This document shows positions 7,230 to 38,400 of a DNA stretch of 43,633 bases, one piece after another. Under the pieces are notes generated by a model. The model was not told the origin of the DNA and ran no database searches. It saw only the letters and a program-made list of their open reading frames with translations. Each line of letters starts with the position of its first letter. Positions within the stretch are counted from its first letter, which is position 1. A program made the translations under genes and the position numbers. The stretch is from a virus (Duplodnaviria; Heunggongvirae; Uroviricota; Caudoviricetes), in IMG/VR virus record IMGVR_UViG_2563366881_000003. One strand, written 5' to 3'.

Positions 7230-7453
7230 TTTCGGTAGGCTTCTACGGCTTCACGAAACATCTTTTCATCGCCAATAAAAGTGGCGATAGTGAATTTAGT
7301 CTGGATAGCCATAAGTGTTTTATCCATTTTGGGGAACTCCTGGCTGATTAAGTACGTCGATGAGTCGTTTCCATCCGTCACGTAATTTACGTGTGATTCG
7401 CTCAAGTAAAGATTCGGAAGGGCAGCCAGCAACAGGCCACCCTGCAATGGCAT
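7214..7453 (-). CDS. Small hypothetical protein (79 aa, or 37 aa from internal ATG at 7327)
   Basis: ORF; internal ATG has a GGAG 9 nt upstream. Confidence 0.3.
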   Translation of the reverse strand: MPLQGGLLLAALPNLYLSESHVNYVTDGNDSSTYLISQEFPKMDKTLMAIQTKFTIATFIGDEKMFREAVEAYRKWRSK

Positions 7454-7541
7454 ATTGCATGGTGTGCTCCTTATTCATTTACACTTGAAATTGCTCCGTG
7501 TATTCACTCGTTGGAATGAATACACAGTGCTTATTCGCAGC

Positions 7542-7868
7542 CTACATAATCATTCCGGTTATTATTACCATTTCAATATCACTATCTTTCATAATGATTG
7601 GAGTTGAGTTATCAACTTTACTTTTACTCCATTTTCCTGCATCAGTTTTTACCGTTCCACAATAAGAAAGCCAATCATCATCACAATGTTCTGGATCGCT
7701 AATTCTAACAAGAACACGTGATAGTGCTTTTTCGATACTTTCATCACAATCAGCATTTATGTAATTGCCGTGAGACAATTTCAAATCGTTAACCTCATCT
7801 TCATTGGCATCAAAAATATAGATTTCAGTCGACTCTGGAACATTTTCATAAACCATTAAAATTTTCAT
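7542..7868 (-). CDS. Acidic hypothetical protein, 108 aa
   Basis: ORF with GGGG upstream of ATG; about 24 Asp/Glu against about 11 Lys/Arg. Confidence 0.5.
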   Translation of the reverse strand: MKILMVYENVPESTEIYIFDANEDEVNDLKLSHGNYINADCDESIEKALSRVLVRISDPEHCDDDWLSYCGTVKTDAGKWSKSKVDNSTPIIMKDSDIEMVIITGMIM

Positions 7869-7887
7869 TTTACCCCATATTGTTTAT

Positions 7888-7912
7888 GCCAAAAATAAAG
7901 GCCGACTATGCG
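7888..7912 (-). terminator. Rho-independent terminator after the membrane-protein gene (minus strand)
   Basis: Hairpin AGGCCG-catagt-CGGCCT followed by TTATTTTTGG on the minus strand. Confidence 0.55.
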
Positions 7913-7920
7913 GCCTGAAA

Positions 7921-8370
7921 TTACTTAACCAATGATGCTGCATATTCGATAAGGTAAAGCTTTGGAGCCAGCCAAATTTTTAACCAAGTCATATTGGTTA
8001 CTGCATCAATAATAAAAATCCCCCACAGAGTCAAAACTCCAACCAATGGCATGATAAGAAGATTAATATCACCTTTGCTATCCCAAACCATTGTCGGCCT
8101 GTATTTGGGATTTCCTTTCTCCCATGAATATCCTTCATCACCGATTTTACCTATCTCAACTCTCTGGCACTGCTTCTTCATAAACCAGAAAACCAGTGGG
8201 ATTGTTAGAATGGCTATTAATGTTTTAATCATACTGTCAACCATATTCCATAGCAGCAACTGATGAACAACATCAGGAATCTGTGCCTGGCTAAATGAAA
8301 CAGCCGCGTCTATTCCATTGCTGGCTTTTTGCAGTAGTTCTACGAGAATCTTGTTTGCTTGTTCTTCCAT
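7921..8370 (-). CDS. Membrane protein with two predicted TM helices, 149 aa
   Basis: Hydrophobic stretches LIAILTIPLVFWF and LLIMPLVGVLTLWGIFII; own terminator; divergent promoter region shared with the SieB-like gene. Confidence 0.55.
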   Translation of the reverse strand: MEEQANKILVELLQKASNGIDAAVSFSQAQIPDVVHQLLLWNMVDSMIKTLIAILTIPLVFWFMKKQCQRVEIGKIGDEGYSWEKGNPKYRPTMVWDSKGDINLLIMPLVGVLTLWGIFIIDAVTNMTWLKIWLAPKLYLIEYAASLVK

Positions 8371-8513: not shown

Positions 8514-9095
8514 ATGAACAACTCATGGTGGCAGGAACTAATGCATTTTTTCCTGCAAGGAATGACACTTAAACAGTTGATTCATATGCTAATCATCCTG
8601 ATCATATTGATTATTGTTATGCCGGTAAGCGTAAAAGAATGGATAAACCTGCATAATCCAGAAATCCTTCCTCATTACTGGATGTATTACATCCTGTTGT
8701 TTTGCGTTAGCTATGTGCTTAACGGCGTTGTTAATTCCGCTTATTACGCTGTGACTGAAAGAATTGAGGTATTCGCTGCTCAGAAGCGCAAATCTAAAGA
8801 AGAGAAATACGTGCAAGATTTGTTTGATTCGTTAACTCTTGGAGAAAGAGCGTATTTGGCACTCGCTGTAGTCGCTAATAACCAGCTACAAACGGAAAAG
8901 GGAAGCCCTGAAGCAATCTCATTGCTCGAAAAAGGGCTTCTTATTCGGATACCTTCTGCTACTGGATATCCTGAAATCGACCGTTTTGTTATCCCAGAAC
9001 GCTATAGAAATGAGTGCTACATTAGGTTTGCTGGGAAGAAAGACAGTCTTATGGATGAACTTATCGCTCAGGATAAGCACGGCAAAAACAAGTAA
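8514..9095 (+). CDS. SieB-like superinfection-exclusion membrane protein (candidate)
   Basis: 193 aa, two N-terminal TM helices plus soluble C-terminal domain; size, architecture and early-left location resemble SieB of lambda/P22; transcribed opposite to the leftward operon. Confidence 0.45.
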   Translation: MNNSWWQELMHFFLQGMTLKQLIHMLIILIILIIVMPVSVKEWINLHNPEILPHYWMYYILLFCVSYVLNGVVNSAYYAVTERIEVFAAQKRKSKEEKYVQDLFDSLTLGERAYLALAVVANNQLQTEKGSPEAISLLEKGLLIRIPSATGYPEIDRFVIPERYRNECYIRFAGKKDSLMDELIAQDKHGKNK

Positions 9096-9241: not shown

Positions 9242-9775
9242 TTACTGGCTCCGTCCATGATTTTCATGAAAGCCATATAGTGCATTGGCTTCTTTCCTTG
9301 CTTGTTTGGCATCATCTAAAAGTTTGAATGAGCCTAGGTATTTTCGTTTTCCATCCACAGTTATCGATGCAACATAAAACCCATGCTCTTTTCTTTCTTC
9401 AACACCTGTAACTCCAGTTGATGAAGATGATTTTAAAGGCATGTTTTTCATATTCTCTTTGAAAGAAACGCTTCTTAAATTGGAGATTCTGTTGTCATCC
9501 TTAACGCCGTTTATGTGATCAATCACATCAGGCCAGTAGCCATGCACGTAAAGCCATGCAAGTCTGTGAGACTTAAATTTTTTACCTCCAATATTTATTC
9601 TCAGATAACCCTTGTTGTCAGGTGAGCCAGCCTTTTTACCTGGATACTTCTTGTTCCACGTCAAGGCAGCTCTGTTATCCGCAAACAAATGCTTTGCTCT
9701 CGGCTTCCAATAAAAGTCACCACTCACAGGATTGTAATGAAGAATCTCCCTTACAGACACTTGAGTAAGATCCAC
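9242..9775 (-). CDS. HNH endonuclease with AP2-like DNA-binding domain (paralog 1)
   Basis: Motif HRLAWLYVHG...IDHINGVKDDNRISNLR, C-terminal GV(T/S)... AP2-like segment; paralogous to three other ORFs in the window. Confidence 0.8.
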   Translation of the reverse strand: MDLTQVSVREILHYNPVSGDFYWKPRAKHLFADNRAALTWNKKYPGKKAGSPDNKGYLRINIGGKKFKSHRLAWLYVHGYWPDVIDHINGVKDDNRISNLRSVSFKENMKNMPLKSSSSTGVTGVEERKEHGFYVASITVDGKRKYLGSFKLLDDAKQARKEANALYGFHENHGRSQ

Positions 9776-10017: not shown

Positions 10018-10725
10018 TTATCCGAATCGCTTGTAATCGATTGACTGCCTAATGAGGACTTTGGCTAGAATGTGAAGTTGCTCTTCTTCACCTTCTTCTA
10101 TGTACCATCGATCATAAGCGGCATTGTCAGAGATGACGGCAAGCCTGTTCTTTTGCATTTGCAGGCGCTTAACGTGCATTGTTTTCCCGTATACAAACAC
10201 ATAAATGCCATCGCCATCAAAATAGGTTATGGATACATCAACAAAGATCTCATCTCCCGGATTGATGGTTCCCTCCATGCTGTCACCGCGAACCGTGATG
10301 ACTTTTACGCTTTCCTGTGGCCTTCCATTAAATAAAATTCTTGCCTGCTCGGGCGTATATTCAATTGCTCTTATCTTTTCTATAAATTCATTGGAAACCA
10401 TGGTTCCTGGCCCGGCGCTCGCCTGAACATCCAATACATCAACACGATAAGAATCATTTGATCTTGATAGATGATTTACCGTGATACCGTCATAATCAGC
10501 ATAGCCATGCAGATATGCAGCAGTAGTTCCCAGCACCGAAGCCAGAGATTCCATCTTGTCTTTTCTTGGTATTGACTCCCCGTTGAACCATTTACTAATG
10601 GCTTTTGGTGTGACCTTAAGCCTGACAGCTAAATCAGCCTGCCTACCATGCAAAGGTAATCCCGCTTTATCACAGGCCAGCGCAAGCCTCTGCGAGAAAG
10701 TTTCACGCTCTTTCTGTTGAACCAT
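10018..10725 (-). CDS. cI: CI-type prophage repressor (HTH plus S24 LexA-like peptidase domain)
   Basis: C-terminal GDSMEGTINPGDEIFVD ... HVKRL (Ser/Lys dyad); start at MVQQKE (ATG 10725) lies inside an operator palindrome with no SD, consistent with a leaderless transcript. Confidence 0.8.
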   Translation of the reverse strand: MVQQKERETFSQRLALACDKAGLPLHGRQADLAVRLKVTPKAISKWFNGESIPRKDKMESLASVLGTTAAYLHGYADYDGITVNHLSRSNDSYRVDVLDVQASAGPGTMVSNEFIEKIRAIEYTPEQARILFNGRPQESVKVITVRGDSMEGTINPGDEIFVDVSITYFDGDGIYVFVYGKTMHVKRLQMQKNRLAVISDNAAYDRWYIEEGEEEQLHILAKVLIRQSIDYKRFG

Positions 10726-10733
10726 AAGTTCAA
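10717..10733. promoter_or_regulatory. Operator (OR3/OR2-like) palindrome TTGAACcataaGTTCAA overlapping the cI start codon
   Basis: 17-bp site with perfect 6-bp inverted half-sites; a second copy occurs 57 bp away. Confidence 0.6.
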
Positions 10734-10745
10734 CTATATTAGGTA

Positions 10746-10790
10746 TTGACTGTACTATCAGTTCCGTCATAATATGAACCATAAGTTCAC
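10746..10790 (+). promoter_or_regulatory. pR-like promoter (TTGACT-16/17-CATAAT) with OR1-like operator TGAACcataaGTTCA at 10775-10789
   Basis: Consensus-like sigma70 hexamers upstream of cro; operator palindrome overlaps the transcription start region. Confidence 0.6.
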
Positions 10791-10804
10791 CACAGGAGAG
10801 AAGC

Positions 10805-11035
10805 ATGAACGAAGTTACGTTTGGAGAAGTTATCAAATCCGTTCGAGTTTCTGTTGTGGCTGATGTTTGTGGACTTACGCCAAAAGCCATCTATAAGTGG
10901 CTTGAGCGTGGTTCTCTGCCGCGTACCGAGTTCACTGGTGAAACCGAATATGCGGATAAGATCGCCAAGGCATCAGGCGGCAAGTACTCAGCAGCACAGA
11001 TTCGCCGTATCGGTAAACAGCAGTTTGTTATGTAA
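10805..11035 (+). CDS. cro: Cro-like repressor
   Basis: 76-aa HTH-like protein divergent from cI, SD AGGAGAG upstream. Confidence 0.7.
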   Translation: MNEVTFGEVIKSVRVSVVADVCGLTPKAIYKWLERGSLPRTEFTGETEYADKIAKASGGKYSAAQIRRIGKQQFVM

Positions 11036-38323: not shown

Positions 38324-38324
38324 A

Positions 38325-38400
38325 GTTGAAGCCCCAACTGCGGGAACAGTCAGGGCTTCTGTTGTCAGTAAATCCGTGGAGAAAAACCAACATGAATAGT
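38325..38400 (-). ncRNA. sar-like antisense RNA covering the ant ribosome-binding region (candidate)
   Basis: Arc-ant intercistronic hairpin GAAGCCC...GGGCTTC at 38330-38361; P22 has sar here. Confidence 0.35.

Follow-up and report, generated by a model that had tools for sequence, protein, structure and literature searches.

A small acidic protein family of lambdoid early-left operons and virulent phages as a candidate inhibitor of host or defence proteins

To our knowledge, few inhibitors of bacterial immunity have been found relative to the number of defence systems. Among those described, Ocr (T7 gp0.3), ArdA and Arn are small, acidic, single-gene proteins that are expressed early from phages or carried by plasmids. 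Known DNA mimics each have an individual fold, with the mimicry residing in the surface of the protein, and generic anti-restriction mimics are abundant on plasmids. The stretch between the genes N and cIII of lambdoid phages, from which Ral originates, is likewise a proven source of immunity inhibitors. Here we examine a gene from this stretch that occupies positions 7542–7868 on the minus strand of a 43,633-nucleotide Caudoviricetes sequence (IMG/VR record IMGVR_UViG_2563366881_000003), the whole of which is called ‘the window’ below. The gene encodes a 108-amino acid (aa) protein of the family PHROG 4658, which we consider a fair but unproven anti-defence candidate that belongs to no known DNA-mimic family.

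The target protein resembles Ocr, ArdA and Arn in being the small acidic product of a single gene, whereas it has no sequence, profile or structural similarity to any of them and its family, unlike ArdA, does not reside on plasmids. All three proteins served as known counter-defence controls in an accessory-gene screen (Silas et al., bioRxiv 10.1101/2023.04.06.535777). A second set of parallels is offered by lambda Ral, lambda Ea10 (DUF2528) and P22 gp17 (PF17420), which share with the target gene its genomic slot, a similar size and a cassette-like pattern of exchange. Because the target gene co-occurs with each of these three, it is not simply an allele of Ral, Ea10 or gp17; the Ral family is also not picked up by a Pfam scan of the target protein.

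The explanation that we favour, if still tentatively and at somewhat short of an even chance, is that the protein is made early and acts stoichiometrically, binding or inhibiting some protein of the host or of a defence system that Proteobacteria have in common. In such a scheme, transcription early in lytic development would reach the gene by reading through an upstream terminator, and the product would be a cytoplasmic, single-domain protein that is not an enzyme. It would act without a partner gene and would work mainly through a conserved acidic core formed by residues 1–65.

The gene and the PHROG 4658 family

The open reading frame (ORF) runs from ATG to stop over the full interval, and its translation is MKILMVYENVPESTEIYIFDANEDEVNDLKLSHGNYINADCDESIEKALSRVLVRISDPEHCDDDWLSYCGTVKTDAGKWSKSKVDNSTPIIMKDSDIEMVIITGMIM. 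A Shine–Dalgarno (SD)-like GGGG, read from the sequence at 7873–7876 (minus strand), stands 4 nt 5ʹ of the ATG and is kept in 23 related loci. The profile of PHROG 4658 (‘unknown function’) matches residues 1–108 at profile positions 2–109 of 109 (E 7.5e-39), and the protein is of the long form of this family. The ratio of nonsynonymous to synonymous substitution (dN/dS) is 0.07 relative to a 79%-identical allele and ranges from 0.2 to 0.46 among close alleles. Given the GGGG near the start codon, the profile match, the low dN/dS and the 79 clusters of relatives described below, the target is a real gene under purifying selection and not a chance ORF. Short plus-strand ORFs that overlap it are without support.

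The protein contains 22 Asp/Glu residues (20%) and 10 Lys/Arg residues, which give a net charge of −12 and a pI of 4.30. An acidic excess had been noted in the initial annotation and is real, with its approximate counts of 24 and 11 corrected to these figures; the DDD run noted at the same time corresponds to residues 63–65. Residues 1–65 hold the entire net charge of −12, whereas the insert that characterizes long forms (residues ~57–90) is neutral to basic (K74, K79, K82, K84), unlike the remainder of the protein. Neither a signal peptide nor a transmembrane segment is evident in the sequence.

Calling the protein ‘strongly acidic’, however, was an overstatement. Its charge per residue (−0.111) ranks second among the 74 window ORFs of at least 80 aa and, when set against the 47 small proteins that recur in such early regions, about fourth. 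This density is near that of Arn (−0.098) and well below those of ArdA (−0.160) and Ocr (−0.239). Among the proteins of the slot, P22 gp17 (−0.140) and Ea10 (−0.115) are as acidic as the target, whereas Ral is basic (+0.045). Most family members carry a net charge between −10 and −14, three are neutral, and approximately ten positions of the family are acidic in at least 60% of members. Acidity is a family trait, yet an ordinary one for a protein encoded between N and cIII, and the composition of the target, though compatible with a mimic, is not diagnostic.

An exhaustive HMMER search of 1.84 billion representative proteins recovered 79 clusters of relatives, all between 33 and 148 aa in length, whereas a word-indexed homologue search returned only five close relatives. 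The 90%-identity cluster to which the target is assigned (264 members) has as its representative an unrelated 210-aa Cys-rich protein, which is encoded immediately 5ʹ of the target gene in another locus (L023, 4323–4955). This cluster is apparently chimeric, and the family is therefore partly hidden from word-indexed searches.

About half of the clusters are long forms of ~100–112 aa, and the remainder are short forms of ~85 aa that keep the N-terminal module and the C-terminal strand but lack residues ~57–90. Short-form relatives match PHROG 4658 and no other PHROG (25 of 25). They also conserve Cys32-His33 and Cys49 (‘CHG ... AC’), which are absent from long forms, including the target, and which could constitute a metal or redox site of the short subfamily.

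Relatives that align over their full length at ~27–33% identity are found in virulent phages, including Klebsiella Jedunavirus-like phages and T4-like phages of Pseudotevenvirus and related genera (RB16, RB43, Margaery gp276, KP27 and GAP161). Others occur in Klebsiella phages of ~140 kb, Aeromonas phages of ~115 kb and large metagenomic phage contigs. The named members of PHROG 4658 comprise Margaery gp276, Klebsiella phage KP27_293, vB_KpnM_IME346 gp01 and the RB16/RB43 homologues. The target matches the phage members of this family in size, acidity and the motifs IYExIPEST, HGxYIN, GKW and TGF, but it differs from the named ones in the type of phage that carries it, which is a temperate lambdoid phage rather than a virulent myovirus. 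Within INPHARED, identity to the target does not exceed 60% in any phage record.

The presence of relatives in strictly virulent phages suggests a role in lytic growth. Moreover, no neighbouring gene was found to recur across phage types, lytic-phage contexts included, which argues that the protein would act alone. Every source annotates the family as ‘hypothetical protein’. That the PHROG 4658 family exists, uncharacterised, was known; what is new is a rare allele that serves as an accessory early gene of lambdoid phages.

Conserved positions of the family are P11, E12, H33, G34, Y36, N38, G78, K79, W80, T104 and G105. Of these, G105 is the sole invariant residue, and only P11 and N38 otherwise reach at least 90% conservation (H33 is at 87% and K79 at 61%). 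The conserved set consists mostly of aromatic, Gly or Pro residues, as is typical of a fold core. Since the single invariant residue is not of a catalytic type and the conserved set is of this fold-core type, the protein is more readily pictured as a binder than as an enzyme.

Comparisons of the target with Pfam, NCBIfam and PADLOC yielded no significant family, a PDB sequence search with the single protein gave no match, and a Pfam scan of 38 family members matched nothing in any of them. Two candidates below threshold, DUF5105 (Pfam, E 0.06) and DpdF (PADLOC, E 0.027), were dismissed. We also rejected the idea that the target is a diverged Ea10 or P22 gp17, for which hhalign returned probabilities of 0.5% and 0.3%, respectively, and neither of which was found by the Pfam scan. 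A PDB profile search with the family gave nothing below E 0.02. Across Pfam, NCBIfam, PADLOC and PDB, no sequence or profile homology was found between the family and Ocr, ArdA, Arn, Ugi, Gam or gp5.9.

AlphaFold2 gave an unusable model from the single sequence (pLDDT 42), and the prediction was therefore rerun with a 38-sequence alignment, which produced a confident model (pLDDT 96.7, pTM 0.88). The modelled elements are a β-hairpin (residues 2–10 and 13–20), three helices (23–32, 43–56 and 64–70) and a C-terminal strand (98–107), so that the protein is predicted to be a compact, small α/β domain with no solved structural relative. A Foldseek search with this model against 350,542 PDB chains had a best E of 0.57 and a TM score of 0.22, whereas all matches in BFVD were uncharacterised phage proteins of the same family (TM 0.70–0.86). 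Structure prediction had been proposed initially as a check for a DNA-mimic surface; in the PDB Foldseek search, the resulting model did not resemble solved Ocr, ArdA, Arn, Ugi, Gam, gp5.9 or the known nucleotide sponges.

A mobile cassette of the early-left operon

The window is a P22/HK620/CUS-3-like lambdoid prophage of Escherichia coli. Its P22-like character is confirmed by two Rfam matches on the minus strand, one to the lambda cIII thermoregulator (7415–7473, 88.5 bits) and the other to the sar RNA (38324–38391, 92 bits), the antisense RNA of P22 immI. The target gene has the same orientation as the early-left promoter pL, lies between the N remnant/sieB side and cIII/kil, and has no promoter of its own. 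By its co-orientation, its location between N and cIII/kil and its position downstream of OL/pL, it is a lambdoid pL accessory gene. The initial annotation had already placed it in the early-left operon, and the gene order cI, N remnant, sieB, target, cIII, kil shows this placement to be correct.

We compared 24 lambdoid loci, of which three come from E. coli chromosomes, 20 from viral contigs of IMG/VR (including a 100%-identical one) and the last from the window. In all of them the target gene lies between N and cIII/kil, with varied neighbours on both sides. Upstream neighbours are a protein with two transmembrane (2-TM) segments, Ral, Nmad5, a Nun-like protein, the Cys-rich 210-aa protein and proteins with no assigned function; downstream neighbours are cIII/kil, P22 gp17, a TolA-like protein and Ea10/DUF2528. 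The stretch from N to cIII is a hypervariable accessory slot of the pL operon, which in other prophages holds Ral (anti-restriction), P22 gp17, a Nun-like protein, SieB, Nmad5 and Ea10. The early-left location also holds more broadly: whether the lambdoid phage is from E. coli, from Serratia, from Burkholderia or from a metagenomic contig, the gene is always found in this arm, and its usual place is next after N or ahead of cIII/kil. In the Serratia prophages and metagenomic contigs it stands right after N or before Kil.

The cassette is rare, in that only 16 of 5,426 complete E. coli genomes match at least 80% of a 441-nt cassette query by megablast. A search of genome contigs with the family alignment returned no loci, whereas the same alignment gave loci on viral contigs. 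Among 72,556 plasmid records, the family is present in one, NZ_CP104216.1 (L038), a 41.6-kb Burkholderia gladioli record named ‘plasmid unnamed1’ that carries a 33%-identical homologue in an early-left arm. This record also encodes NinB, YdaU, ERF and lambda exonuclease. Its annotation as a plasmid notwithstanding, the record represents a phage or phage-plasmid of lambdoid type, and the PHROG 4658 family is phage-restricted and essentially absent from plasmids.

The target gene forms a self-contained cassette (~7487–7916, minus strand) that consists of a terminator hairpin, the SD sequence, the ORF and a 3ʹ stem-loop. Homology to other loci extends from ~7487 to ~7916 and stops directly after GGAGCAAU, and the GC content of the cassette is 0.34, compared with 0.43–0.48 in its flanks. 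At the 5ʹ edge (7890–7916), a terminator scan and folding identified an intrinsic-terminator-like hairpin, AGGCCG-CAUAGU-CGGCCU, followed by a U-run. This hairpin stays 5ʹ of the target gene irrespective of which gene precedes it, although its stem varies next to an upstream Ral, and the diverged, 79%-identical allele (L021) retains it as well. Several upstream genes, those for Ral and for protein clusters c185 and c66, share ‘...NKAA-stop’ codons, with which the hairpin overlaps in its left arm. The shared sequence looks like a conserved module boundary or linker for mosaic recombination.

At the 3ʹ edge, a very stable stem-loop without a U-run follows the stop codon (7487–7536, with a 14-bp perfect stem at 7496–7527; dG −22.9 kcal/mol, z −5.7). 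The diverged allele has a hairpin at the same place 3ʹ of the gene (dG −22.1, z −4.4) whose stem sequence is entirely different, and the flanks GCGAAUAAGCAC and GAGCAAU are conserved between the two. The structure might serve for RNase III processing, for mRNA stability or as a linker in recombination.

A scan found no promoter-like site 5ʹ of the target on its own strand. Together with the upstream terminator, this indicates that early expression should depend on read-through from pL, presumably by antitermination. In the window, the antiterminator gene N is reduced to ~50 C-terminal codons (9273–9115, minus strand) with an in-frame stop, and its arginine-rich N-terminal part is missing; genes are arranged identically at this site in L006, the IMG/VR contig of 100% identity. 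Because N looks defective, antitermination of pL is doubtful in this particular prophage, which may be unable to perform it.

Candidate functions of the protein

The initial annotation had proposed an anti-defence role and, more specifically, DNA mimicry. The former has gained from the accessory-slot context, in which Ral is found elsewhere, from the predicted early expression and from the virulent relatives, whereas the latter has gained no support. An extended version of the inhibitor hypothesis, to be held more loosely than the general one, would make the target a founding member of a new family of counter-defence or host-takeover inhibitors. This family would have a small α/β fold not seen before, would pass between lambdoid prophages as a hairpin-bounded cassette and would extend to virulent phages (T4-like, Jedunavirus-like and large) that infect Gamma- and Betaproteobacteria. 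The bacterial protein that it inactivates would be widely conserved, and the mechanism unlike those of known mimics.

Several considerations weigh against an inhibitor. The role is reached by inference, all relatives being ‘hypothetical’, and a literature search by PHROG identifier, by accessions and by counter-defence in lambdoid or RB16/RB43-type phages turned up nothing on the family. Guilt by association is weak for this slot, because it also holds cIII, kil, SieB and Nun, which are not counter-defence genes. Three charge-neutral family members mean that charge may not be the working principle. The conserved polar residues H33, Y36, N38 and T104, joined by Cys32 and Cys49 in short forms, could instead form a ligand or metal site. 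Finally, with N a remnant, the upstream terminator may block expression of the target in the window prophage, where its expression is uncertain.

The alternative that survives best, though we regard it as unlikely, is a DNA-mimic anti-restriction protein, which, in the manner of Ocr, ArdA and Arn, would present an acidic surface resembling the DNA backbone and thereby titrate a defence enzyme that binds DNA, such as type I or III restriction–modification or BREX. Its pI, Asp/Glu content and net charge, which bring it near Arn, suit such a function, as does the conservation of acidity in most of the family at the approximately ten positions noted above. The slot is also the one that holds Ral elsewhere; the window phage lacks ral but encodes the anti-RecBCD protein Abc2. 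Ral adjoins the target gene in only 4 of the 24 loci, a weak under-representation against a crude baseline in complete E. coli genomes of 976 places for ral and 1975 for the window cIII allele, which hints at partial redundancy between the two genes, although the loci are not independent.

This same co-occurrence in some phages counts against the idea, and so does the basic character of Ral, whose anti-restriction activity is the one proven for this slot. The charge density of the target does not reach half the value for Ocr and is usual for the slot, its neutral relatives fit poorly, and it lacks sequence, profile and fold similarity to solved mimics. Its family is, furthermore, essentially missing from plasmids. 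Since mimics are alike in their surfaces and the known ones all differ in fold, these comparisons leave mimicry neither supported nor refuted.

Still less probable is a small protein that depends on a metal or that soaks up a small molecule, for instance a nucleotide signal of immunity, with a role that would be analogous to those of Tad1, Tad2 and Acb2. Size, single-gene autonomy and spread over temperate and virulent phages recall the known sponges, and a binding site could be assembled from the conserved polar and aromatic residues H33, Y36, N38, W80 and T104, together with the Cys32-His33...Cys49 trio of short forms; NUDIX genes near a family member in two unrelated large-phage contexts point the same way. 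However, the model matches no solved sponge, no candidate ligand residue is invariant, and the Cys pair is missing from long forms, including the target. The strongly negative protein, with K79 as its one moderately conserved basic residue, is moreover a poor fit for anionic nucleotides.

Two further ideas have very little probability. A nucleic-acid regulator could operate through the long-form insert, which weakly resembles helices 1–3 of an XRE-type helix-turn-helix (HTH) and is neutral to basic. The evidence for this is a near-threshold match of the family profile (E 0.024, query 42–88, pattern W-x3-G-V-x5-G-K-W-x7-P) to PDB 3bs3, an XRE-type HTH protein titled ‘putative DNA-binding protein’; no Pfam HTH match was found in the target or in 38 members, and the model had no significant structural match of any kind. 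A lysogen-benefit moron or superinfection-exclusion factor made from the prophage, like the neighbouring SieB, would suit the low-GC, hairpin-marked cassette and its proximity to sieB and a membrane protein, but is at odds with the co-orientation with pL, the terminator directly upstream, the lack of a promoter-like site on its own strand and of an evident signal peptide or transmembrane segment, and the relatives in phages that are strictly virulent and so never form a lysogen in need of protection.

An early inhibitor would be worth pursuing on practical grounds. The family is small, autonomous, confidently foldable and without a solved relative, and is thus a cheap candidate for anti-defence screens and structure determination. 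It occurs in temperate phages and also in virulent ones, of therapeutic type, that infect Klebsiella, Enterobacter, Cronobacter and E. coli. If the target inhibits a defence system, it would bring a novel fold, perhaps with a novel mechanism, and would help to predict the host range of Klebsiella and Enterobacter phages that carry the family. If it has no measurable effect, it would be an ordinary hypothetical early gene.

Neighbouring genes and further observations

Leftward from the repressor, the window encodes cI (Peptidase_S24 and HTH_3; 10018–10890), an HNH/AP2-type homing-endonuclease ORF (9242–9775, minus strand) that stands in place of the N-terminal part of N, the stop-interrupted C-terminal remnant of N described above, and sieB (8514–9095, plus strand). 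A 149-aa, 2-TM protein of PHROG 3054 (7921–8370, minus strand) lies directly upstream of the target, and cIII (7320–7478), which overlaps its Rfam thermoregulator, lies downstream. Beyond cIII are kil and genes for PHROG 1723, a Sak4-like ATPase and an SSB-like protein, then the gene for the anti-RecBCD protein Abc2 (PF11043; 5436–5732), and beyond this DUF2737, an Ea22-like protein, xis and int.

In other phages, Citrobacter phage Margaery gp276 adjoins an Ndd-like early gene. NUDIX-domain genes lie within three genes of a family member in two unrelated large-phage contigs (L032, 4579–5028, and L041, 5309–7486), which may be a matter of chance.

We considered whether the target family had been included in the screen of Silas et al. 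and rejected this, as none of the family motifs searched for stands in the context of the family in its supplementary files, which cover 200 accessory genes. In these files ‘IPES’ appears only within ArdA and an unrelated phage protein. The 149-aa PHROG 3054 protein is homologous to UDP0047 (AEW47744.1, two predicted TM segments) on the list of that screen, and UDP0047 was not seen among the phenotype-bearing genes named in the passages of the preprint that were consulted. Both the N- and C-terminal ends of the 149-aa protein are conserved, and its middle is variable.
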